A stretch of 64,000 nt of DNA from an uncultured Candidatus Saccharibacteria bacterium (lineage in GTDB: Bacteria > Patescibacteriota > Doudnabacteria > UBA920): NCBI GenBank assembly GCA_964490395.1, contig CAZBAS010000005.1:17167-81166 (forward strand), read 5' to 3'. Below the pieces are notes generated by a model. It saw only the letters and a list, made by a program, of their open reading frames with translations. It ran no database searches and had not been told where the DNA came from. How positions within the stretch are numbered: the first letter of the stretch is position 1; the number at the start of each line of letters is the position of its first letter. Positions 20,695 through 55,803 of the stretch are shown piece after piece. The position numbers and the translations under genes are program-made.

Positions 20695-20918
20695 GGGTAG
20701 CCTATTCCTGCAAAGCAATCACACCTGTGGTTGCTTTTTTGTTATTCTCTGGCTATGCGCTGTTGTTTTTGCGCATACAATGCTCCTGACTTGGGTCCTT
20801 CATTGGGGGCTAGACACTGGAAATTGTCCGCCCCAGGGGGGTCGCCTTGGGAGGAGAGATTAGAAATTTGCTTGGGGTTTGCTATACTACATACGTCAAT
20901 AATGGTTATATAAAAGTA

Positions 20919-21419
20919 ATGCCAAAGACTACTACCCGCAGCAAAAGTAAAAAAGACGTAATAGAACCAAAGCCTTCTAAGTTTAGACTTATAGCCAAAC
21001 GCTCAAGTGCTGGCCTTGGCTTGTACACCCTGGACCCTATCAAAAAGGGTGAAAAAATAATCCAATACGGCGGATACAAAATAACGAATGAAGAAGCAGA
21101 TAGGCAAGGGGGGAAGTATTTATTCGAAATCATAGACAGTAAATTCACTATAGACGGTACGCCGCGGTGGAATATTGCACGGTACGCAAATCATAGCTGC
21201 AAGCCAAATAGTGAGGCAGTATGGTACGGCCAAAATGTGTGGATTTGTTCCAAGAAAAACCTACAGCCCGGGGATGAAATTACCTACAATTACGGCAAAG
21301 TATATTTTAACGATATTATCGGCGGCGAGAAGCATTGCATGTGCGCCGTGCATCATCCTAAAAAGGGGTACCTCGGCAAGCTAACAGATGCAGAGATAAA
21401 GAAATATGGTAAAAAATAA
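20919..21419 (+). CDS. SET-domain protein (putative protein-lysine methyltransferase)
   Basis: GLGLYTL, ARYANHSCKPN and ITYNYG motifs plus a post-SET CMCAVHH; the track start 20847 is TTG, and the ATG at 20919 (MPKTTT) is more likely. Confidence 0.75.
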   Translation: MPKTTTRSKSKKDVIEPKPSKFRLIAKRSSAGLGLYTLDPIKKGEKIIQYGGYKITNEEADRQGGKYLFEIIDSKFTIDGTPRWNIARYANHSCKPNSEAVWYGQNVWICSKKNLQPGDEITYNYGKVYFNDIIGGEKHCMCAVHHPKKGYLGKLTDAEIKKYGKK

Positions 21420-21506
21420 TGCCTAATGCCTAATATCTAATTTCTAATGCTCGGACCAGATTCAGTCTTTGCCATTAGATATTAGGAATTAGTAATTAGA
21501 CATTTC
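21418..21506. repeat. CTAAT-based intergenic repeat, copy 3
   Basis: taatgcctaatgcctaatatctaatttctaatg ... cattagatattaggaattagtaattagacatttc lies between the SET gene and mscL. Confidence 0.5.
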
Positions 21507-23242: not shown

Positions 23243-23587
23243 ATGACTTTCACAGAACGGGTAATTTACATAATTAAAAAGATTCCTACAGGGCGCGTGG
23301 CAAGTTATGGGCAGGTGGCAGCGCTGGCTGGTAGTCCTGGTGCAGCGCGGCAAGTAGGATTTATCTTGCGCTCGTCCACTTTAGATAGCCTGCCGTGGTG
23401 GCGCGTTATCAATAATGCAGGCGTGCTCTCTATAAAAGGCAGCTTTGAAGCAACGAAGAGCTTGCAAAAAGATTTATTGGAAAAAGAAGGAATAGAGGTA
23501 TCTGAACAATTTACCGTTCCCATTGAAACATATCGATACCACCCCACCAAAGCCGCCCTCGCCACGTTCCACCAACTTCAAAAATAG
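23243..23587 (+). CDS. Alkyltransferase-like (ATL) protein / MGMT-family DNA-binding domain protein
   Basis: The MGMT C-terminal domain fold has PWWRVIN where the PCHRV active site would be (Trp replaces the acceptor Cys, as in the Atl1/YbaZ class). Confidence 0.65.
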   Translation: MTFTERVIYIIKKIPTGRVASYGQVAALAGSPGAARQVGFILRSSTLDSLPWWRVINNAGVLSIKGSFEATKSLQKDLLEKEGIEVSEQFTVPIETYRYHPTKAALATFHQLQK

Positions 23588-23991: not shown

Positions 23992-24234
23992 TTACTTGTG
24001 AGAAGTCTTTTTTCGCGGGGGGACTTTTGCTCCCTTTTCGCGCGCTTCCGAAAGCCCTATGGCTATGGCCTGCTTTCGGCTTTTTACTTTTTTATTGCTT
24101 CGCCCACTTTTGAGCGTGTCCTCTTTGTATTCGCGCATTACTTTTTCTACTTTCCGCTGGGCTTTGTCGCTGTATTTCCTTGTACCCGTTTTTGTGCGTT
24201 TTTTTGTTGCCATACTGTATTGTTCCTTTCGCAC
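23992..24234 (-). CDS. Small basic protein (hypothetical)
   Basis: 80 aa, K/R-rich (MATKKRTKTGTRKYSDKAQRKVEKVMREYKE...). Confidence 0.4.
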   Translation of the reverse strand: MRKEQYSMATKKRTKTGTRKYSDKAQRKVEKVMREYKEDTLKSGRSNKKVKSRKQAIAIGLSEAREKGAKVPPRKKTSHK

Positions 24235-26689: not shown

Positions 26690-28864
26690 ATGAAACAATC
26701 CCTCGTTCAAAAAATAGCTATTTTAAATAAAACAGTTCTGGAGTGTTTTGGTGCGCCTACAGAACAATATATTGTAAAGAAATTTGTCGATACGGGCATA
26801 GTCGTTTTGGGTGCCGACTTTGGGTGTTCGTGGCTGAGGCGTTCGGGCCCTCGTTTTGAGCTAGGCTATAAGAGTCCAGCTATGCCGTATGCTCCAGAGC
26901 CTCCCCGTCGAAGTGATGGCGTTAATGCGCGGATACAGCGTTCAAAAGTGCCGTTGTTGATTGGAGATATTTTACCAAATCGCAAGGTCAAACAAGACTC
27001 TAAGCAGCACATGCGTGCTATCGCAGGTATACCTATCATATATAAGAATGATAATTATGGTAATTTAATCTATTGTTTTAAAAATCCGCGAAAATTTACA
27101 CAGGAAGAAAAGAGTATTTGCGAATTTATTGGAAACGTGACCGCTCAAGCCATACGGATAAACCGTTTGTATGCAAATATAAGCGAGCTTAAACATACCC
27201 TCGACAATGCGCGGGATGCTATGTTTATTTTAGAGCCGGAAGATTTGCGCATTTTATATACGAACCAAACTGCGATAAAACATTTGGGCATGTCGGAGAA
27301 GCAGCTGGTGGGAAAGTCGGTGCGAGAACTACAAACCGGCATACCACTGGATTCATTCCAGGAAATTATTCAAGCAGTGGTGGAGAACCCTGCAGAGCGC
27401 CGATTGTTTGAAACTGAAATTACCTTGCCTGGACAAACCATTATCCCCATTGAAGTTTCGCTTGAGCATGTAGTGAAGGAAAAGTCTGCGGCAGAACCAA
27501 GACTCCTTGCTACTGTGCGCAATTTAACAGACCAGAAAAATGCTGAAAGCGAAATTAAGCGCAGTATGTATTACGACAAGCTCACGGGCTTGCCGAACCG
27601 TAAGTACCTTATGGAGGAGCTTCCTAAGGTAGTAGAGGCAGCAAAGTTGGAGAAGCGCCAGTTCGCAGTTATTTTTGGAGATTTAGATAAGTTCAAATTT
27701 ATAAACGACATGCTGGGTCACGAGCAAGGTGACTTGCTACTAGTAGAGGCGGCAAAGCGGTTGTGGGATGCAGTAGAGAAGCGCGATATGGTGGCGCGTA
27801 CGGGTGGCAATGAATTTATTTTGTTACTGGAACACATGCAGTCCATACAGGACATAGAGCGAGTGGCAGAGCGTATCCAAGCTGCTTTCTCAGAAGCCTT
27901 TATGCTCGAAGGTCAGGAGATATATATGAGTATATCCCTTGGCATAAGTGTGTTCCCAAACGACGGTACCGATGTGCAGGCGCTGTTGCGCAACGGGCAG
28001 GCAGCGCTTCGGTCGGTTAAGGCTACGGGCGGTGGTTCGTTTAGGCACTACTACGGCGACATAGCTGCAGTTTCTCCAGACCAGCTTAAACTACAACAAC
28101 AGTTGCGTCAGGCAGTGAGCAAGGGCCAGCTCGTAGTGTACTATCAGCCAGCCATAAGCCTTGCCAATGGAAAAGTGCTGGCAGCAGAAGCGTCGCTGCG
28201 TTGGAAACATCCGGAACGTGGCCTGCTTTTGCCGGAGGACTTTATGCCCCGCGCAGAAGAAAATGGTTTTGTCGTGGAAATAGGCTATTGGCTTGTTCGC
28301 GAAGTGGCAGGGCATATTAAAGCATGGCAAAAGAAAAAACTAGGGACCATTCCGGTAAGTATAAATTTGTCGTACCGCCAACTAGCTCAGCACAACATTG
28401 TGGAAGACATGACCAAGATTGTCTCAGCAGCAGGCATTGTTCCGCAGCTTCTGTCCATTGAGGTGACCGAGAGCACGGTGATGAAGGATTTAAATCTTGC
28501 GCTGGCCGTACTTACAAAGTTTAAACGACTAGGCTGTAAAATATTGGTGGATGGTTTTGGGCGAGGGTATAGTTCTTTGAAAGACCTCAAGCAAATGCCC
28601 ATAGATAGCATTAAAATAGATCCCTCGTTTATTCAAAGCATTGGCACAGATAAATACGACAATGCCATAGTGACCGCCATTATATCTTTAGCGCACGACA
28701 TGAAGCTCCTGGTAGTTGCAGAAGGTGTCCATGAGAGTGCCCATATAAAGTTTTTGGCTGAACATGGGTGTGACATGGTGCAAGGGGATTGGTTTACAGA
28801 AGCATTGCCAGAGCACGGGTTTGTTTCGTGGGTGTCTGAACTGAACAAAGTTCGCAAAAAATAG
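26690..28864 (+). CDS. Sensory GAF-PAS-GGDEF-EAL cyclic-di-GMP signalling protein (GGDEF likely degenerate)
   Basis: GGDEF domain with LTGLPNRKY, FGDLDKFKFINDMLGHEQGD and the GGNEF variant of GG(D/E)EF. EAL domain with YYQP...EASLRW, EVTES, DGFGRGYSS, IKID, EGVH and QG. Confidence 0.85.
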   Translation: MKQSLVQKIAILNKTVLECFGAPTEQYIVKKFVDTGIVVLGADFGCSWLRRSGPRFELGYKSPAMPYAPEPPRRSDGVNARIQRSKVPLLIGDILPNRKVKQDSKQHMRAIAGIPIIYKNDNYGNLIYCFKNPRKFTQEEKSICEFIGNVTAQAIRINRLYANISELKHTLDNARDAMFILEPEDLRILYTNQTAIKHLGMSEKQLVGKSVRELQTGIPLDSFQEIIQAVVENPAERRLFETEITLPGQTIIPIEVSLEHVVKEKSAAEPRLLATVRNLTDQKNAESEIKRSMYYDKLTGLPNRKYLMEELPKVVEAAKLEKRQFAVIFGDLDKFKFINDMLGHEQGDLLLVEAAKRLWDAVEKRDMVARTGGNEFILLLEHMQSIQDIERVAERIQAAFSEAFMLEGQEIYMSISLGISVFPNDGTDVQALLRNGQAALRSVKATGGGSFRHYYGDIAAVSPDQLKLQQQLRQAVSKGQLVVYYQPAISLANGKVLAAEASLRWKHPERGLLLPEDFMPRAEENGFVVEIGYWLVREVAGHIKAWQKKKLGTIPVSINLSYRQLAQHNIVEDMTKIVSAAGIVPQLLSIEVTESTVMKDLNLALAVLTKFKRLGCKILVDGFGRGYSSLKDLKQMPIDSIKIDPSFIQSIGTDKYDNAIVTAIISLAHDMKLLVVAEGVHESAHIKFLAEHGCDMVQGDWFTEALPEHGFVSWVSELNKVRKK

Positions 28865-35770: not shown

Positions 35771-36997
35771 ATGAATTTCGGTTTTGTAAGTCAACATGGT
35801 CTTGGAAGTTTGCAGCAAGAAGTTATTGAGCGTAAAGGAATTGGGCATCCGGACACCCTAACTGACGCGTTAGCTGAACGTATGTCGGCTCACTACGCCC
35901 AGTACACATTGAAGCATTACGGAGTTATTTTGCACCATAATTTTGACAAGTTACACATACTTGGCGGTGCAACAGAGCTAGATTTTGGCGGTGGTAGGCT
36001 GATACGCCCCATCAGAGTTATTATAAACGGTAGAGCGTCTGCAAGCTTCGCCGGTGAACAACTGCCTGTCCAGTACATTCTGGGCGATGCAGCACGGTCA
36101 TTCTTTCAGGAGCGTTTTCCTGGATTGATTGACCCGGCTCGCGACCTTGAATTTCACTGGCTGGTCAGTACTTCCAGTAGCCCAGGCAGAACTAAGCGGA
36201 CTACTGGGGCGAGAGCATACATGTTTAATCCTCGGACAGTCGCCGAAGTGAAAGGTTACGACGGTCCCTTGGTCAACAACGATACTTCCATGGGGTGCGG
36301 CTACGCGCCGTATTCTATTCTGGAAGCAGCGGTGTTGGGTCTGGAGAGGGATTTGAACAGCAGTGTCCGGAAGGATGAATTCCCATGGCTTGGTACCGAC
36401 ATTAAAGTCATGGCCGTGCGGCAAGATGATCTCATTTCCATTACGGTGTGCTTGCCGCAAATAGCAAGTAAAGTGGCAAGTGAACGCGCGTACCAAGAAA
36501 ATTTGGCTACGTTGGACCGGCATATCAGGAGACAGCTTGCCCGGCTACTTCAAGGCGCGCCGTTCGAACTGGGGTATAACACCCGCGACAACAGGCGTAC
36601 AGGCGATTACTATCTTACTGTCACAGGCACTGCCCTTGAGTCTGGCGATGAAGGAGTAGTGGGTCGCGGTAATCGCATCAACGGTCTTATTACACCATTC
36701 CGACCGATGAACTTGGAAGGGGTGTGTGGTAAGAATCCACTCTACCATACGGGAAAGTTATATAACATAGTGGCGCAGCGAATCGCTGAGCGTATTCACC
36801 GCGAAACTGGCGCGTACTGCGAAGCGTACTTAGTGGGCCAAAGTGGACAAGCGTTGCTTGACCCGTGGTCTGCAACTATACGCAGCGCAGATACTAACTT
36901 GGATGCAGCAACTGCCCAAGCGTGGGCAGTTGAAGAAATACAACAAATTCCTGCTATAACCCAAGCGTTGGTGAAGCAGGAATTGACGTTATGGTAA
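35771..36997 (+). CDS. Archaeal-type S-adenosylmethionine synthetase (methionine adenosyltransferase, MAT)
   Basis: ERKGIGHPD, ILHHNFD, NNDTSMGCGYAP, DIKVM and YYLTVTGTALESGDEGVVGRGNRINGLITPFRPMNLEGVCGKNP...HTGKLYN are collinear with the archaeal MAT family; SD gaggagg upstream. Confidence 0.85.
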   Translation: MNFGFVSQHGLGSLQQEVIERKGIGHPDTLTDALAERMSAHYAQYTLKHYGVILHHNFDKLHILGGATELDFGGGRLIRPIRVIINGRASASFAGEQLPVQYILGDAARSFFQERFPGLIDPARDLEFHWLVSTSSSPGRTKRTTGARAYMFNPRTVAEVKGYDGPLVNNDTSMGCGYAPYSILEAAVLGLERDLNSSVRKDEFPWLGTDIKVMAVRQDDLISITVCLPQIASKVASERAYQENLATLDRHIRRQLARLLQGAPFELGYNTRDNRRTGDYYLTVTGTALESGDEGVVGRGNRINGLITPFRPMNLEGVCGKNPLYHTGKLYNIVAQRIAERIHRETGAYCEAYLVGQSGQALLDPWSATIRSADTNLDAATAQAWAVEEIQQIPAITQALVKQELTLW

Positions 36998-38066: not shown

Positions 38067-38726
38067 ATGACTAACATATTTCTTGGCGGCGGGGGGTCTG
38101 CTATAGACTCCTTGCCGCTCGACCAACACTTTGCCAATCTTTTAGATAAGCAGAAACTGCTTGTCTATATTCCCAACGCCATGACCTCGCGCCCTTTTTC
38201 AGAGTGCATGGAATGGTTTACACATACGTTTGCTCCTTTGGGAGTAAATCGTATAGAAATGTGGGATCGGCTGCAGCCGCAGGCGGATGTTTCCGAGATT
38301 GCGGGAATATATGTGGGCGGCGGCGATACGGGCAGGCTTTTGAAACTGATACGAGAATCGCACTTTTCGGAATACATAGTAGAAGCGGTCAAGTCAGGCG
38401 TGCCAGTCTACGGCGGTAGCGCTGGGGCTATTGTACTTGGCCGTGACATTCGCACTGCGCCAGAAGCGGTTAATCTATCCTTGCAAGATGCAACAGGGTT
38501 AGGTTTGCTTGCTGATGAGTGCGTCGCGTGTCACTATGTCCCAGAACGAGAAACCAGTGTTTGTCACGCTGTATCGTCATTGGGCTACTCTATAATTGCT
38601 ATTCCAGAAAAGTCCGGTTTGTATTATAACGGTCAAGTATATTCGGTTTTCGGAACCGAGTCTGCTTGGCTTTTTTCTATGGATGAGAAAAAAGAACTGC
38701 TGTCAGGGGAGAGTTATACGCTGTAA
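38067..38726 (+). CDS. Peptidase S51 family protein (dipeptidase E / cyanophycinase-like)
   Basis: FLGGGGS, IYVGGGDTGRLL and YGGSAGAIV motifs of the S51 Ser hydrolase family. Confidence 0.7.
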   Translation: MTNIFLGGGGSAIDSLPLDQHFANLLDKQKLLVYIPNAMTSRPFSECMEWFTHTFAPLGVNRIEMWDRLQPQADVSEIAGIYVGGGDTGRLLKLIRESHFSEYIVEAVKSGVPVYGGSAGAIVLGRDIRTAPEAVNLSLQDATGLGLLADECVACHYVPERETSVCHAVSSLGYSIIAIPEKSGLYYNGQVYSVFGTESAWLFSMDEKKELLSGESYTL

Positions 38727-40760: not shown

Positions 40761-42866
40761 ATGGCCTACCAAAATTACGAGAAAAATGAGAGTAAGTTGT
40801 CTCACCATAAGCAGTTTAAGAAGGAGTTAAAACCTCCGCTCCTTACGCTTAATATGACAACCTATTCTTGGATAAATGACCGCATGCCTGAAATGTTATG
40901 GGCGGTTTTAGTCATTGGGAATATAGAAAGAGAAATTGCCTTAAAATTTTTCAGAACTATTGCCGAATTTGTACATAAGAATCCTGACTGTTCAGATGTA
41001 ACACTTACTGGTATTAGCAAATTTCATGAAGAAAAGAAAAAGCAATTTATTCAACTTGCCACAAGCTGGTCAGAGGAAGTAAAAAATGTCTTAAAGCCTT
41101 TGATGTGGCTTGAGCAGCTACCAGCAAAAGAAGTATGGAAGGAATTGCTAGGAGAACCTGCAAGGAAGGATGAAGATTTTAATAAACTAGCCAATGGCGT
41201 ATCTAAGACTTACTGGCACCAATCAGAAGCAGCTACTGACTGTAGATGGATTAAATTTTTGTGCCAGATACTAGGCGGAAAAATGTCTTTTACAAAAGGT
41301 ATGGAAGATAAAGTAAAAGGTGTTTTAGAATATCCAAACTACGGAGATTTGAAAACTATAAGACCCTTTATAAGGGCATCTGAAATTATGCCATCCGACC
41401 CTGATGCGGATAAACCTTTTCATAGTGATTGGTCATTTAATTTTTGGCAACAATGTTTTGATGAAACTGGTTGTCTCCCAGAAGAGAAGGTTAGTCAGAA
41501 AATCCGAAAGAAACAAGACGATTTGTTTCAAGAAATGAAAAAATCAAGAGAGTTTAGATTAAAGCAAATAGTTGATGTAAGACATAATTTAATTGAACAC
41601 TCGATTAAGGAGTCAAAAATTTCTTCTGTAGATGCAAGACATGAAGGAAGTTTTGGTTTGGCTTTGTATGGTCTCTCTCTGTATATTGAAATTATTTTTT
41701 ATACAGTATCACTCTCGATTACGGGCAGATTGGCTATGCGAGCTTTAGTAGAGTGTTATATAACATTTAAGTATTTATTACAAAAGGAAAAAAGTGAGCC
41801 AGCCATATGGGACACTTATCGCGAGTACGGAAACGGGCAACTAAAGCTGCTTTATCTAAAACTCAAAGAAATGAACCAGAAGATAGGAAGTATTGAAATT
41901 GATACACTAGACGAATTAGCGAATGAAGATAAATCGGTTGAGTTTGTTCCTATAAATCTAGGGAATTGGGACTCTGAAAATTTGAGAAAAATGGGCGCAG
42001 AAGCTGGGCTTAAAGATTTATACGATAAATACTATAGCTATACATCTGGTTTCATGCATGGAAGCTGGGGAGCTGTCAGAGAGTCTATTTACCAAAAGTG
42101 CGTAAATCCTCTTCATAGATTTCACAGAATACCTATTTTTGATATGCCTTTAATGTCGAGTGTGGTTGACGATGCAACAGAAATTATGAATGGCATCCTA
42201 GAATGTTTGTCAGTAGCATATCCTAAATTTGATGATAGATTATTAAATTCTGATAGCCTAGACAAAACAGAGGCTAAGTCAGAAGAACTAAGCCCTCAAC
42301 CAATTAAAGCAAGTAGCATCGCTAAGGGAATACATCATAGCATTAAAAATGCGGAAAGATATGTTCAGTCAGCTAAGGAGCTGAAAACTAAAGATAAACA
42401 GGCTGCCTATCTCTTATTTCTTTATGCGCTAGAAGAAATGGGAAAAGTTCCTTTAATTTGGAATGCTTTATTTCATACAGAAACAAAGAGTGAATGGCTA
42501 AAGTGGCAAAGAAGGTTCAAAGACCATGCAGAAAAATTTTGGTTTAGTAGAGATCTTGAAGATTTTGATGAGAGGAAATTATCTAACAAAGAAAATAAGG
42601 CGGAAACAAAAATGGCAGCTAAAAAACTAGATGTATCTTACGTTAGCTTTGATGGTGAATTTCAACCCCCTGAAGATGTAGGCGAAGAGGAATTGGCGAA
42701 GATAGAGTTAAATTGCGAACGCAGAATCGCGTTCTTAAAAAGAAATCATAAATCAATTGAAGAGGACGAAAAAAGAATTGTAGAAGGTTATAAAAAAATG
42801 AAAGGTCTGACACAGGAAGAATTGAAAGAAATGATCAAGAACATGCAAAAAGAAAAATCGGATTAG
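40761..42866 (+). CDS. Large AT-rich, Lys-rich orphan protein (701 aa), unknown function
   Basis: About 35% GC against about 48% in its flanks; no family recognised; internal R-x5-H (VRHNLIEH) and a C-terminal K/E-rich coiled-coil-like tail. Confidence 0.6.
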   Translation: MAYQNYEKNESKLSHHKQFKKELKPPLLTLNMTTYSWINDRMPEMLWAVLVIGNIEREIALKFFRTIAEFVHKNPDCSDVTLTGISKFHEEKKKQFIQLATSWSEEVKNVLKPLMWLEQLPAKEVWKELLGEPARKDEDFNKLANGVSKTYWHQSEAATDCRWIKFLCQILGGKMSFTKGMEDKVKGVLEYPNYGDLKTIRPFIRASEIMPSDPDADKPFHSDWSFNFWQQCFDETGCLPEEKVSQKIRKKQDDLFQEMKKSREFRLKQIVDVRHNLIEHSIKESKISSVDARHEGSFGLALYGLSLYIEIIFYTVSLSITGRLAMRALVECYITFKYLLQKEKSEPAIWDTYREYGNGQLKLLYLKLKEMNQKIGSIEIDTLDELANEDKSVEFVPINLGNWDSENLRKMGAEAGLKDLYDKYYSYTSGFMHGSWGAVRESIYQKCVNPLHRFHRIPIFDMPLMSSVVDDATEIMNGILECLSVAYPKFDDRLLNSDSLDKTEAKSEELSPQPIKASSIAKGIHHSIKNAERYVQSAKELKTKDKQAAYLLFLYALEEMGKVPLIWNALFHTETKSEWLKWQRRFKDHAEKFWFSRDLEDFDERKLSNKENKAETKMAAKKLDVSYVSFDGEFQPPEDVGEEELAKIELNCERRIAFLKRNHKSIEEDEKRIVEGYKKMKGLTQEELKEMIKNMQKEKSD

Positions 42867-54004: not shown

Positions 54005-54457
54005 TTACCTTAACCAAGCAGAAATGTAGCTGCCGTATTCTTGCCGTTTGTGGTCGGGGAGGCGCGCGAAGCGACCAATGGTTTTTCTACAGCTGGGCGT
54101 ACCGCAGAGGCACTGCATTTGCCAGTCGCTGTTTTCCGTCATGTCGTAATCCCAGGTAAGCTCTTCGCCCGCCTGAATATCACGCATGGTCACGATGGTA
54201 AATAAATTTTGGATACCGCAGTTCGGCTCGCACGAGTGATTGAGCAGTTCGGCTATGCCGGTGCTTTCTCGGTAGAGGTGGGGCGCACATTGTACTACGT
54301 GGTCGGCAATAAACTTATTTGGTAGTTGGCTGGCGGATTCTGCTTCATGGAAGCTACCGTCAAAATTCGCTAGTTTTTCACCCTGCTTAATAACTGTCTT
54401 GGCAAAGACTCCCAAGCCTTTGCCCGGGGTTATTTTTATAATTAGATTTCCGTGCAT
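54005..54457 (-). CDS. SET-domain protein (second copy)
   Basis: GKGLGVFA, NHSCEPNC, ELTWDYD and a post-SET CLCGTPSCR. Confidence 0.75.
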   Translation of the reverse strand: MHGNLIIKITPGKGLGVFAKTVIKQGEKLANFDGSFHEAESASQLPNKFIADHVVQCAPHLYRESTGIAELLNHSCEPNCGIQNLFTIVTMRDIQAGEELTWDYDMTENSDWQMQCLCGTPSCRKTIGRFARLPDHKRQEYGSYISAWLR

Positions 54458-54463
54458 ACATTC

Positions 54464-54865
54464 TTATTTACGGATTAAAACTTTCATAGTGCTACTTTTT
54501 GCTTGAAAGAAGGTATCGCAAAACCTTTTTGCGGTGTGGGGGTTGTAGAGTCTGCAAGAGAAGATGTCTATATATACATTGCCATTGGCTTCTACAAAAT
54601 GACCGGTAAGTGACGAGGTTTCTATGAGCTGCATCATGGAGTAGCCGTAGAGTTCTGGATACCTACCAAGTTTAACTAGGGTAGTCGGGCCGAACTTGTT
54701 CACTTTGAGTAGCTTGCAAAGTATGTTGGTAAACGCTGTGAGTTTCTTTTTGCTCTTAATGGTATTACTGTTGCAGTTTCTTAAGTCTATATGGGTGGAG
54801 AGTCCCCAGCTGTTAGCTTTTTGGAATTCTGCCTTAAGTTTTGAATAGGGGAGGAGTTTTTGCAT
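54464..54865 (-). CDS. S-adenosylmethionine decarboxylase-like protein (SpeH / class 1b AdoMetDC fold)
   Basis: GLSTHIDLRNC (the G.H..D...C motif) and LIETSSLTGHFVEANGNVYIDIFSCR align to the SpeH autoprocessing region, but with TS where ES is usual; 6 nt upstream of the SET gene. Confidence 0.6.
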   Translation of the reverse strand: MQKLLPYSKLKAEFQKANSWGLSTHIDLRNCNSNTIKSKKKLTAFTNILCKLLKVNKFGPTTLVKLGRYPELYGYSMMQLIETSSLTGHFVEANGNVYIDIFSCRLYNPHTAKRFCDTFFQAKSSTMKVLIRK

Positions 54866-54978: not shown

Positions 54979-55803
54979 ATGCTTCTTACTCCAAAAACGA
55001 CCCTTTCCGAAAAGATATTGTTCGTGCTGGGCAAACATCCTAACAGTACGGCGGAATTTATTTTAAAAGTTGTAGGACCTTCGAATTATAGTATCCAGGC
55101 TGTATACAAAGAACTCAGAACCATGCAAAAGTTTGGGGCAGTGGTCAAGGTGGGGCATTCTTTTAGCTTGCGGGTATCATATGTACTGGCTTTGTCAGAA
55201 ATGTTTGACGCTTTTCAAACAATATCTCTAAGTAGTGGGTTGTCGAGCGATATCTTATCTGGGCCGAGTAAACAAGTGTGGAGACTAAACAGTTTAATCA
55301 AAGTAGTAAACTTTTGGGATTACTTACTGGTTGGGTTGGTGAGTGTTTCAAAATCAAAACAGCTGTTTGGATACACGAAGCACGCCTGGTACCATCTTGC
55401 ACAGCCCGAGGCAGAAGACCGTTACCTCCAGGCTATCCGCAGAGTCGGGGGCAAGATTTTCTTAACACTTGGTAGCAAGCAGCCGCTAGATGTGTGGTCT
55501 GAGAAATTTTGGCCAAAAGATGTTGTGGAGTTTGGATATGGAAAATCGTTTCTAGAGTCCGATGAAGACCTGGAGTTTGATGTTATTGATGACTATATAG
55601 TAACCGTAAAAAAAGACAAAAAAGTCTCTCAAATAGTTGAGGGCGTGTACAGCTCAGTTGCTCACCCGCGAGACTTTAGTGGTTTAGCGGAAATATTTCT
55701 ACGCCCAGCCAGTGTAAAAGTTGTGCTCGAGAAAAACCCTAAAAAAGCGATGGTTCTTAGGAAAAAGTTTACGAGGTTCTTCGGACTCAGAGTCTCTTAC
55801 TAG
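54979..55803 (+). CDS. Hypothetical protein (possible N-terminal wHTH)
   Basis: 274 aa; no family recognised. Confidence 0.45.
   Translation: MLLTPKTTLSEKILFVLGKHPNSTAEFILKVVGPSNYSIQAVYKELRTMQKFGAVVKVGHSFSLRVSYVLALSEMFDAFQTISLSSGLSSDILSGPSKQVWRLNSLIKVVNFWDYLLVGLVSVSKSKQLFGYTKHAWYHLAQPEAEDRYLQAIRRVGGKIFLTLGSKQPLDVWSEKFWPKDVVEFGYGKSFLESDEDLEFDVIDDYIVTVKKDKKVSQIVEGVYSSVAHPRDFSGLAEIFLRPASVKVVLEKNPKKAMVLRKKFTRFFGLRVSY

Follow-up and report, generated by a model that had tools for sequence, protein, structure and literature searches.

The only characterised endogenous substrates of prokaryotic SET-domain proteins are two basic chromatin proteins, Hc1 of Chlamydia and MC1-alpha of Methanosarcina; both bind DNA, and each is modified by a SET protein of its own organism, cpnSET of Chlamydia pneumoniae and Go1-SET of Methanosarcina mazei, respectively (PMC3980110). 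SET genes are also established in free-living bacteria, and secreted bacterial SET effectors exist (PMC3980110). A further described system is BurB, a methionine S-methyltransferase of Burkholderia thailandensis (PDB 9L4T/9L4V), whose SET domain methylates free methionine, a decarboxylase following in the pathway (PMC12542666). As for decarboxylases, Li et al. (2023, PMC10407285) showed that homologues of S-adenosylmethionine decarboxylase (AdoMetDC) evolved repeatedly into arginine or ornithine decarboxylases that depend on a pyruvoyl group, and they report the ornithine-specific SpeDC type in bacteria of the Candidate Phyla Radiation (CPR). Here we analysed a 64,000-nucleotide (nt) stretch of DNA (the window, whose numbering is used throughout) from contig CAZBAS010000005.1 of an uncultured Candidatus Saccharibacteria bacterium (GCA_964490395.1; Doudnabacteria in the GTDB lineage). 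It encodes two SET-domain proteins, SET1 and SET2, the second of which directly follows a gene for a predicted SpeDC-type ornithine decarboxylase (ODC):

20919 to 21419, forward strand: SET1 coding sequence, 166 amino acids plus stop, a small SET methyltransferase of a Doudnabacteria-like subclade (open reading frame, Pfam SET match and structure model).
54005 to 54457, reverse strand: SET2 coding sequence, 150 amino acids plus stop, with a SET domain, a canonical post-SET segment and a family-specific C-terminal helix.
54464 to 54865, reverse strand: SpeDC-type pyruvoyl decarboxylase, 133 amino acids, a predicted L-ornithine decarboxylase by homology.

Both open reading frames (ORFs) carry a SET domain, as the first-pass annotation of this DNA had read them. 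SET1 matched Pfam SET (PF00856) with 73.3 bits (E = 2.5e-20, residues 32-126) and SET2 with 53.7 bits (E = 3e-14), scores that are far beyond chance (the gathering cut-off is 22.4 bits). That annotation had also taken the two for paralogs, a view that did not hold: they share 27% identity over 141 residues, retrieve different sets of homologues, and SET2 alone is coupled to an ornithine decarboxylase. Judged by sequence, each comes from a SET family of its own, and the two are neither close nor recent paralogs. Clustering with catalytically inactive SET-like folds, which that annotation had named as a refutation, was not borne out, the catalytic motifs being intact in SET1 and SET2. Like the SET domains of KMT2 (MLL/SET1) and EZH2, with which they share 27-37% identity and a Foldseek probability of 1.0, both have the GxG, NHSC and ELxYDY motifs and a post-SET segment or, in SET1, a post-SET-like variant of it; unlike them, both are minimal single-domain proteins, devoid of partner-binding or chromatin-reader regions. 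SET2 further departs from KMT2 and EZH2 by a shortened segment between its two central strands and by an H-x-x-Q motif. Altogether, we give a little better than an even chance to the combined view that SET1 is a cytoplasmic protein-lysine methyltransferase and that SET2 is tied to the SpeDC-type decarboxylase.

The structure model of SET2 has a predicted local distance difference test score (pLDDT) of 94.9. In an alignment of 30 relatives, N73-H74-S75-C76 and D103-Y104 are invariant, and the cofactor motif reads G14-L-G16; the canonical post-SET cysteines C116, C118 and C123 are likewise invariant, together with C76. Foldseek matched the model with a probability of 1.00 to many solved SET domains, ASH1L and NSD1 first and BurB 8th and 11th, and the SET2-family profile placed MLL1 at the top of the PDB (E = 2e-22) with BurB about 20th (1.5e-15). 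We therefore rejected a specific relationship between SET2 and BurB.

SET2 starts 6 nt past the stop codon of the decarboxylase gene, whose product matches Pfam AdoMet_dc (PF02675) with 56 bits. In PMC10407285, SpeDC enzymes are diagnosed by a conserved Gln, Thr, Phe and Tyr that surround the processing Ser and the catalytic His and Cys; Fig. S5 of that paper shows two ODC domains that have been validated, their pyruvoyl serine lying within '...QLIETS..GHF....YIDIFSC'. The SET2 partner has all of these: the serine marked in that figure falls on its S84, within the sequence QLIETSSLTGHFVEANGNVYIDIFSC, and self-cleavage is predicted between Thr83 and Ser84, just before Ser84 (nt 54616-54614). 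Its alignment with the ODC domain of KXK35843, a validated one, spans 123 residues without a gap (33% identity, E = 1e-30), whereas the bona fide AdoMetDC domain of KXK35843 gave E = 0.002; the reference sequences were transcribed from a figure and may contain optical character recognition errors. An exhaustive HMMER search returned 584 representatives of the partner family at E <= 1e-10. Within the top 150, between 119 and 149 sequences keep each of Q79, T83, S84, H89, F90, Y98 and C104 (147 for S84, 148 for H89 and 144 for C104); a search by sequence for a solved structure of the partner found none. Because the diagnostic Q79, T83, F90 and Y98 are present and the similarity to the ODC domain (1e-30) far exceeds that to the AdoMetDC domain (0.002), we predict with high confidence that the gene beside SET2 encodes an ornithine decarboxylase of the SpeDC type.

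The SpeDC-SET2 pair is conserved in a relative (GCA_964383305.1), where a divergent 276-amino-acid ORF lies at the same position as the following feature of the window:

54979 to 55803, forward strand: divergent 274-amino-acid ORF beside the SpeDC-SET2 pair, no known domain (no Pfam match).

From position and size, we infer that these two ORFs are homologous. In other organisms, SET and decarboxylase domains are joined in a single protein, in either order:

Decarboxylase domain followed by SET: P0147 (annotated as a Nitrosopumilales archaeon), P0164 and L100.
SET followed by decarboxylase domain: P0293, P0278 and L106.
L106, 2292 to 3825, forward strand: a canonical SpeD-type AdoMetDC gene (AESHLSIH) directly upstream of the SET-SpeDC fusion gene, with a 14-nt overlap.

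The last of these loci strings together three S-adenosylmethionine (SAM)- or polyamine-related modules, with no spermidine synthase nearby. The decarboxylase domains fused to SET represent at least two subtypes of the AdoMetDC fold. Further fusion partners of the family to which the SET2 partner belongs include GNAT acetyltransferases and spermidine synthase, the latter in a relative 45% identical to the SET2 partner. Spermidine synthase acts on putrescine, the decarboxylase product, and GNAT enzymes commonly acetylate amines. As a control, we looked for AdoMetDC-fold neighbours in the SET1-family loci and found them in none. SpeDC genes described earlier show linkage to, or fusion with, speD, speE, hss or carboxyspermidine genes; PMC10407285 and two related papers mention no SET partner. 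Nor did we find a SET-polyamine link described in the literature searched, a search that was incomplete; the SET2-SpeDC association may thus be undescribed so far.

Adjacency, the conserved pair in a relative and the fusions make it probable that the function of SET2 is tied to the decarboxylase or to its product. In a two-gene unit with SET2, the partner would make putrescine, and SET2 would N-methylate putrescine, or ornithine before its decarboxylation, yielding N-methylated diamines. Putrescine is H2N-(CH2)4-NH2, and its aminobutyl group is the chemical group of a lysine side chain. We thus tentatively propose, as a possibility rated clearly below even, that SET2-type SET domains are small-molecule amine N-methyltransferases working with the SpeDC ornithine decarboxylase. 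P/CAF, a histone acetyltransferase, acetylates spermidine at its aminobutyl end (cited in PMC9992855), and the SET domain of BurB acts on a free amino acid. As BurB is singled out neither by profile nor by Foldseek, it is the logic of gene fusion that carries this proposal. Several observations weigh against it. In a hidden Markov model search of the fetched loci, only ~4 of ~100 independent SET2-family loci had an AdoMetDC-fold neighbour or fusion, and a SET domain was found in only 3 of the 150 top representatives of the decarboxylase family. The profile of the SET2 family is closest to MLL-type protein-lysine methyltransferases, with no small-molecule sign in sequence or structure. From the locus counts we rejected a general linkage between the SET2 family and SpeDC; the SET-decarboxylase link is real and recurrent, yet confined to a minority.

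About equally likely, and hence also a tentative reading, is a protein-lysine role, in which SET2 would be an ordinary protein-lysine methyltransferase whose target is the decarboxylase or another protein, the fusions then reflecting regulation or complex formation. The profile ranking just described, MLL1 first and BurB behind, speaks for it, as do the canonical post-SET cysteine cluster and the catalytic tyrosine; most SET2-family genes also stand alone, and one member is fused to a cyanophycin synthetase and not to a decarboxylase. It accounts less readily for fusions in both domain orders and with at least two AdoMetDC-fold subtypes, since domains fused in both orders are more often enzymes from one pathway than a modifier with the protein it modifies. 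The use of putrescine by spermidine synthase, which is fused to the same decarboxylase family, counts against it as well.

The cyanophycin synthetase fusion (L152, 502-3459, forward strand, on a metagenome contig) is a 986-amino-acid protein with Cyanophycin_syn, Mur_ligase_M and Mur_ligase_C domains and a C-terminal SET2-family domain; it is another non-chromatin context of the family, one involving basic amino acids. The window itself encodes a Peptidase_S51 protein (38067-38723), and the Peptidase_S51 family includes cyanophycinase. A full-length SET2-family gene with 43% identity also occurs on a 519-kb IMG/VR contig classed as viral (L169, 3001-3492), with no decarboxylase within 3 kb; this contig could represent a giant virus or cellular DNA binned by mistake. 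IMG/VR contigs carry a few distant relatives in all, and none of these has a decarboxylase next to it.

We turn to SET1, the features of which are as follows:

20919 to 20957, forward strand: basic N-terminal tail, residues 1-13, MPKTTTRSKSKKD, net charge +4 (pLDDT and alignment).
21012 to 21296, forward strand: core motifs GLGL (residues 32-35), RYANHSC (88-94) and EITYNYG (120-126, including Tyr125), from the alignment.
21336 to 21416, forward strand: post-SET-like variant C140-x-C142-x2-H145-H146, followed by a basic extension PxKGxLGKLTxxE..K (net charge +5), from the alignment.

Its AlphaFold model (pLDDT 85.6) matched the SET domains of MLL3, MLL1, EZH2 and NSD1 with a Foldseek probability of 1.0, and the SET1-family profile matched KMT2C/D in the PDB at E ~5e-27; by sequence, profile and fold, the best matches are the KMT2 (MLL) and EZH2 SET domains. 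In an alignment of 28 family members, G32, L33, G34, L35, Y50, R88, Y89, N91, C94, N97, E120 and Y125 are invariant, and H92 and Y123 nearly so (>= 90%). Cofactor and catalytic motifs are therefore intact, given the conservation of GLGL, RYxNHxC, N97, E120 and Y125 across these relatives.

The first-pass annotation had drawn attention to a 24-residue basic tail as a binding extension. The N-terminus (MPKTTTRSKSKKD) is indeed basic and rich in Lys and Arg, in a protein with an overall isoelectric point of 9.6; the variable part, however, amounts to only ~10-12 residues, and the rest is structural and conserved. In the model, pLDDT falls below 50 at residues 1-8 only, residues 13-15 and 24-29 form strands of the domain, and the stretch 'I-PKPSKFRL-AKRSSAGLGL', conserved across the SET1 subclade, belongs to this structural part. 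The tails of subclade relatives vary in sequence and are mostly basic, with net charges of +1 to +5. Overlooked in that annotation was the C-terminal extension, which is as basic as the N-terminal tail and better conserved. It follows a post-SET-like segment in which C140 and C142 are invariant; members of the wider SET1 family (130-145 amino acids) end in CxCxxC, whereas the subclade has CxCxxHH plus the extension. His145 and His146 occupy the position of the third Cys of the wider family, C140, C142 and C94 being present; this C-terminus may bind zinc. One SET1 relative of 264 amino acids (P0019) consists of two tandem SET1-type domains, an architecture from which the functional unit of these small SET proteins may be a dimer.

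The first-pass annotation had called bacterial SET proteins uncommon, which this family contradicts: it comprises 1,135 database clusters at E <= 1e-3, and relatives were confirmed in at least 576 species-level genomes (one genome scanned per species). Among the matches listed, CPR members come from Paceibacterota, Moraniibacteriota, Saccharibacteria, Nomura-, Wolfe-, Kaiser- and Vogelbacteria, and free-living ones from Pyrinomonadaceae and Blastocatellia (Acidobacteria), Hyphomonadaceae and Xanthobacteraceae (Alphaproteobacteria), Bdellovibrionales and cultured Microvirga. A single metagenome-assembled genome carries both L013 and L021, and having more than one copy is therefore not unusual. 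We also clustered the neighbouring ORFs of 82 family loci in search of an operon partner. No neighbour family occurred in more than 5 loci, and a conserved SET1 operon partner was thus rejected, nothing recurring beyond the synteny of close relatives; the genomic context therefore provides no hint of a substrate.

From these features, SET1 would be a catalytically competent, cytoplasmic, SAM-dependent SET methyltransferase from a large stand-alone family (130-170 amino acids). Its acceptor is most likely a protein lysine, since its closest relatives act on such residues, and its target would be a lysine in an endogenous, abundant and probably nucleic-acid-associated or ribosomal protein. The basicity of SET1 and its two ends rich in Lys and Arg are compatible with nucleic-acid-bound or ribosomal substrates; the tail and the C-terminal extension would be additions specific to its lineage (Doudnabacteria-like CPR) and may help it to reach acidic partners such as nucleic-acid-bound substrates. 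In comparison with Go1-SET and cpnSET, made by description only, SET1 similarly has an intact SET core and is basic, without secretion features; it differs in the CxCxxHH post-SET variant and the conserved basic C-terminal extension, both specific to its subclade. By analogy with these two enzymes, a nucleoid-protein target is a plausible, and the leading, hypothesis. Speaking against it, no nucleoid-protein gene is conserved beside SET1, and its basic tail consists of few residues whose sequence varies. Both extensions are moreover missing from most family members (130-145 amino acids) and thus cannot be essential to the core function of the family. An extremely Lys/Arg-rich DUF6496 protein of 80 amino acids is encoded in the window 2.6 kb from SET1 (23992-24234, reverse strand); it is a candidate abundant basic protein and a possible SET1 substrate, and in the two relatives examined it is not adjacent to SET1.

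The N-terminal tail of SET1 could instead be an automethylation site or a pseudosubstrate regulating the enzyme, lysine-rich and histone-tail-like, and not a binding extension. Automethylation of tails or loops is known in some eukaryotic SET enzymes (G9a, EZH2), and the tail is disordered, rich in Lys, Ser and Thr, and directly precedes the domain. We nevertheless find this improbable: the sequence of the tail is unconserved, with no fixed lysine position, most family members have no tail at all, and in the model it does not lie in the substrate groove.

For SET2, a more specific scheme would make it a BurB-like methionine S-methyltransferase and its partner a decarboxylase of S-methylmethionine, which together would carry out, with a pyruvoyl enzyme, the two opening steps of the dimethylsulfoniopropionate methylation pathway. 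When the SET2 sequence alone is compared with the PDB, BurB comes first (E = 1.9e-12); it resembles SET2 in size, in its SET and post-SET arrangement and at 30% identity, and is followed by a decarboxylase in its own pathway (PMC12542666). The ancestral substrate of AdoMetDC, too, belongs to the methionine sulfonium compounds. This scheme is nonetheless very improbable. By family profile (about rank 20) and by Foldseek (behind ASH1L and NSD1) BurB is not the nearest relative of SET2. The partner is an ODC-type pyruvoyl enzyme, as opposed to the BurI that comes after BurB; it carries the ODC-diagnostic Gln, Thr, Phe and Tyr and matches a validated ODC domain along its whole length, and its 45%-identical relative is fused to a spermidine synthase, which needs putrescine. 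No BurI-, BurD- or BurE-type gene was found among the SET2 neighbours, which are the SpeDC-type decarboxylase, an Exo_endo_phos protein and the 274-amino-acid ORF.

Least probable of all, and very unlikely, is the idea, raised in the first-pass annotation, that SET1 targets host histones, for which it would have to be a secreted effector like NUE, RomA/LegAS4 or BaSET with its tail as a localisation or histone-binding signal: its closest solved relatives are eukaryotic histone methyltransferases, its source looks like a CPR bacterium, a group including episymbionts, and secreted SET effectors exist, yet the signal-peptide check found no hydrophobic N-terminal segment in SET1 (maximum hydropathy 0.75), the Legionella effector model AnkI/LegAS4 (NCBIfam T4SS_AnkI) scored SET1 and SET2 alike at 13 bits against a cut-off of 550, members of the family are plentiful in free-living Pyrinomonadaceae, Hyphomonadaceae and Xanthobacteraceae and in cultured Microvirga, neither SET1 nor SET2 had a match in 50,697 phage records, and cultivated CPR episymbionts are known to live on bacterial hosts, where histones are absent.

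The start and surroundings of SET1 comprise the following features:

20712 to 20737, forward strand: terminator-like hairpin with a T-run, 3' of the upstream 174-amino-acid gene (consensus match only).
20861 to 20888, forward strand: promoter-like site TAGAAA-16-TATACT with TG, ~30 nt 5' of the SET1 ATG (consensus match only).
21418 to 21504, forward strand: AT-rich inverted repeat, 32 nt per arm, in the interval from the SET1 stop to the mscL start.

Public gene calls make SET1 183 or 190 amino acids long by using upstream starts, the longer one beginning with TTG at 20847. The ATG at 20919, the start adopted in the first-pass annotation, is better supported, because relatives start with MPK.. 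or MKK.. at this position, the promoter-like site lies downstream of the TTG, and the hairpin stands at 20712-20737. Promoter-like sites in the SET1 region are not more numerous than expected from shuffled sequence. The hairpin suggests that SET1 is a separate transcription unit. The arms of the inverted repeat are 81% complementary, with CTAAT/ATTAG-like units, and its RNA fold has an energy of -27 kcal/mol (z = -4.9), which none of 200 shuffles equalled; the repeat could serve as a terminator or in the regulation of mscL. A similar ATTAGATATTAG motif stands directly 5' of mscL in one relative (L082), and an AT-rich repeat of the TTATTAC/TAATTAC type lies 5' of mscL in another (L164).

In the nearest named relative of SET1 (76% identity, Candidatus Doudnabacteria), the order is a 170-amino-acid ORF, SET, MscL, RsgA on the opposite strand and an alkyltransferase-like gene, as in the window; in a second relative, SET and MscL are still accompanied by the alkyltransferase-like gene, and this order is retained in close relatives only. 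Identity and gene order together make a Doudnabacteria-like CPR (Patescibacteria) source of the window probable. The alkyltransferase-like protein (23243-23587, forward strand), syntenic with SET1 and MscL in relatives, has the PF01035 DNA-binding domain only and reads PWWRV, where active O6-methylguanine methyltransferases carry the cysteine motif PCHRV. Elsewhere in the window lie genes for a GAF-PAS-GGDEF-EAL cyclic-di-GMP signalling protein (26690-28861, forward strand), a 701-amino-acid DUF5677 and HEPN/AbiV protein that looks defence-related (40761-42863, forward strand) and an archaeal-type S-adenosylmethionine synthetase (PF01941, 336 bits; 35771-36994, forward strand). With the last of these, the cofactor supply for SET1 and SET2 is encoded in the same window.

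SET1 is an ordinary member of its family, with minor subclade-specific variation (CxCxxHH and basic ends). Small SET methyltransferases are common in CPR bacteria and in free-living phyla, so one or two of them in a window are no sign of host manipulation. The small bacterial SET family is almost uncharacterised biochemically, and the SET1 copy gives no special handle on its substrates; the recurrent link between SET and a putrescine-forming decarboxylase, in turn, makes the function of bacterial SET domains a testable two-protein question. If SET2 does methylate amines as we tentatively propose, SET chemistry, seen so far on protein lysines and on the sulfur of methionine (BurB), would reach polyamines as well; to our knowledge, no earlier SET-domain enzyme is known to act on a polyamine. 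CPR bacteria and some archaea would then possess a previously unrecognised route of polyamine modification.

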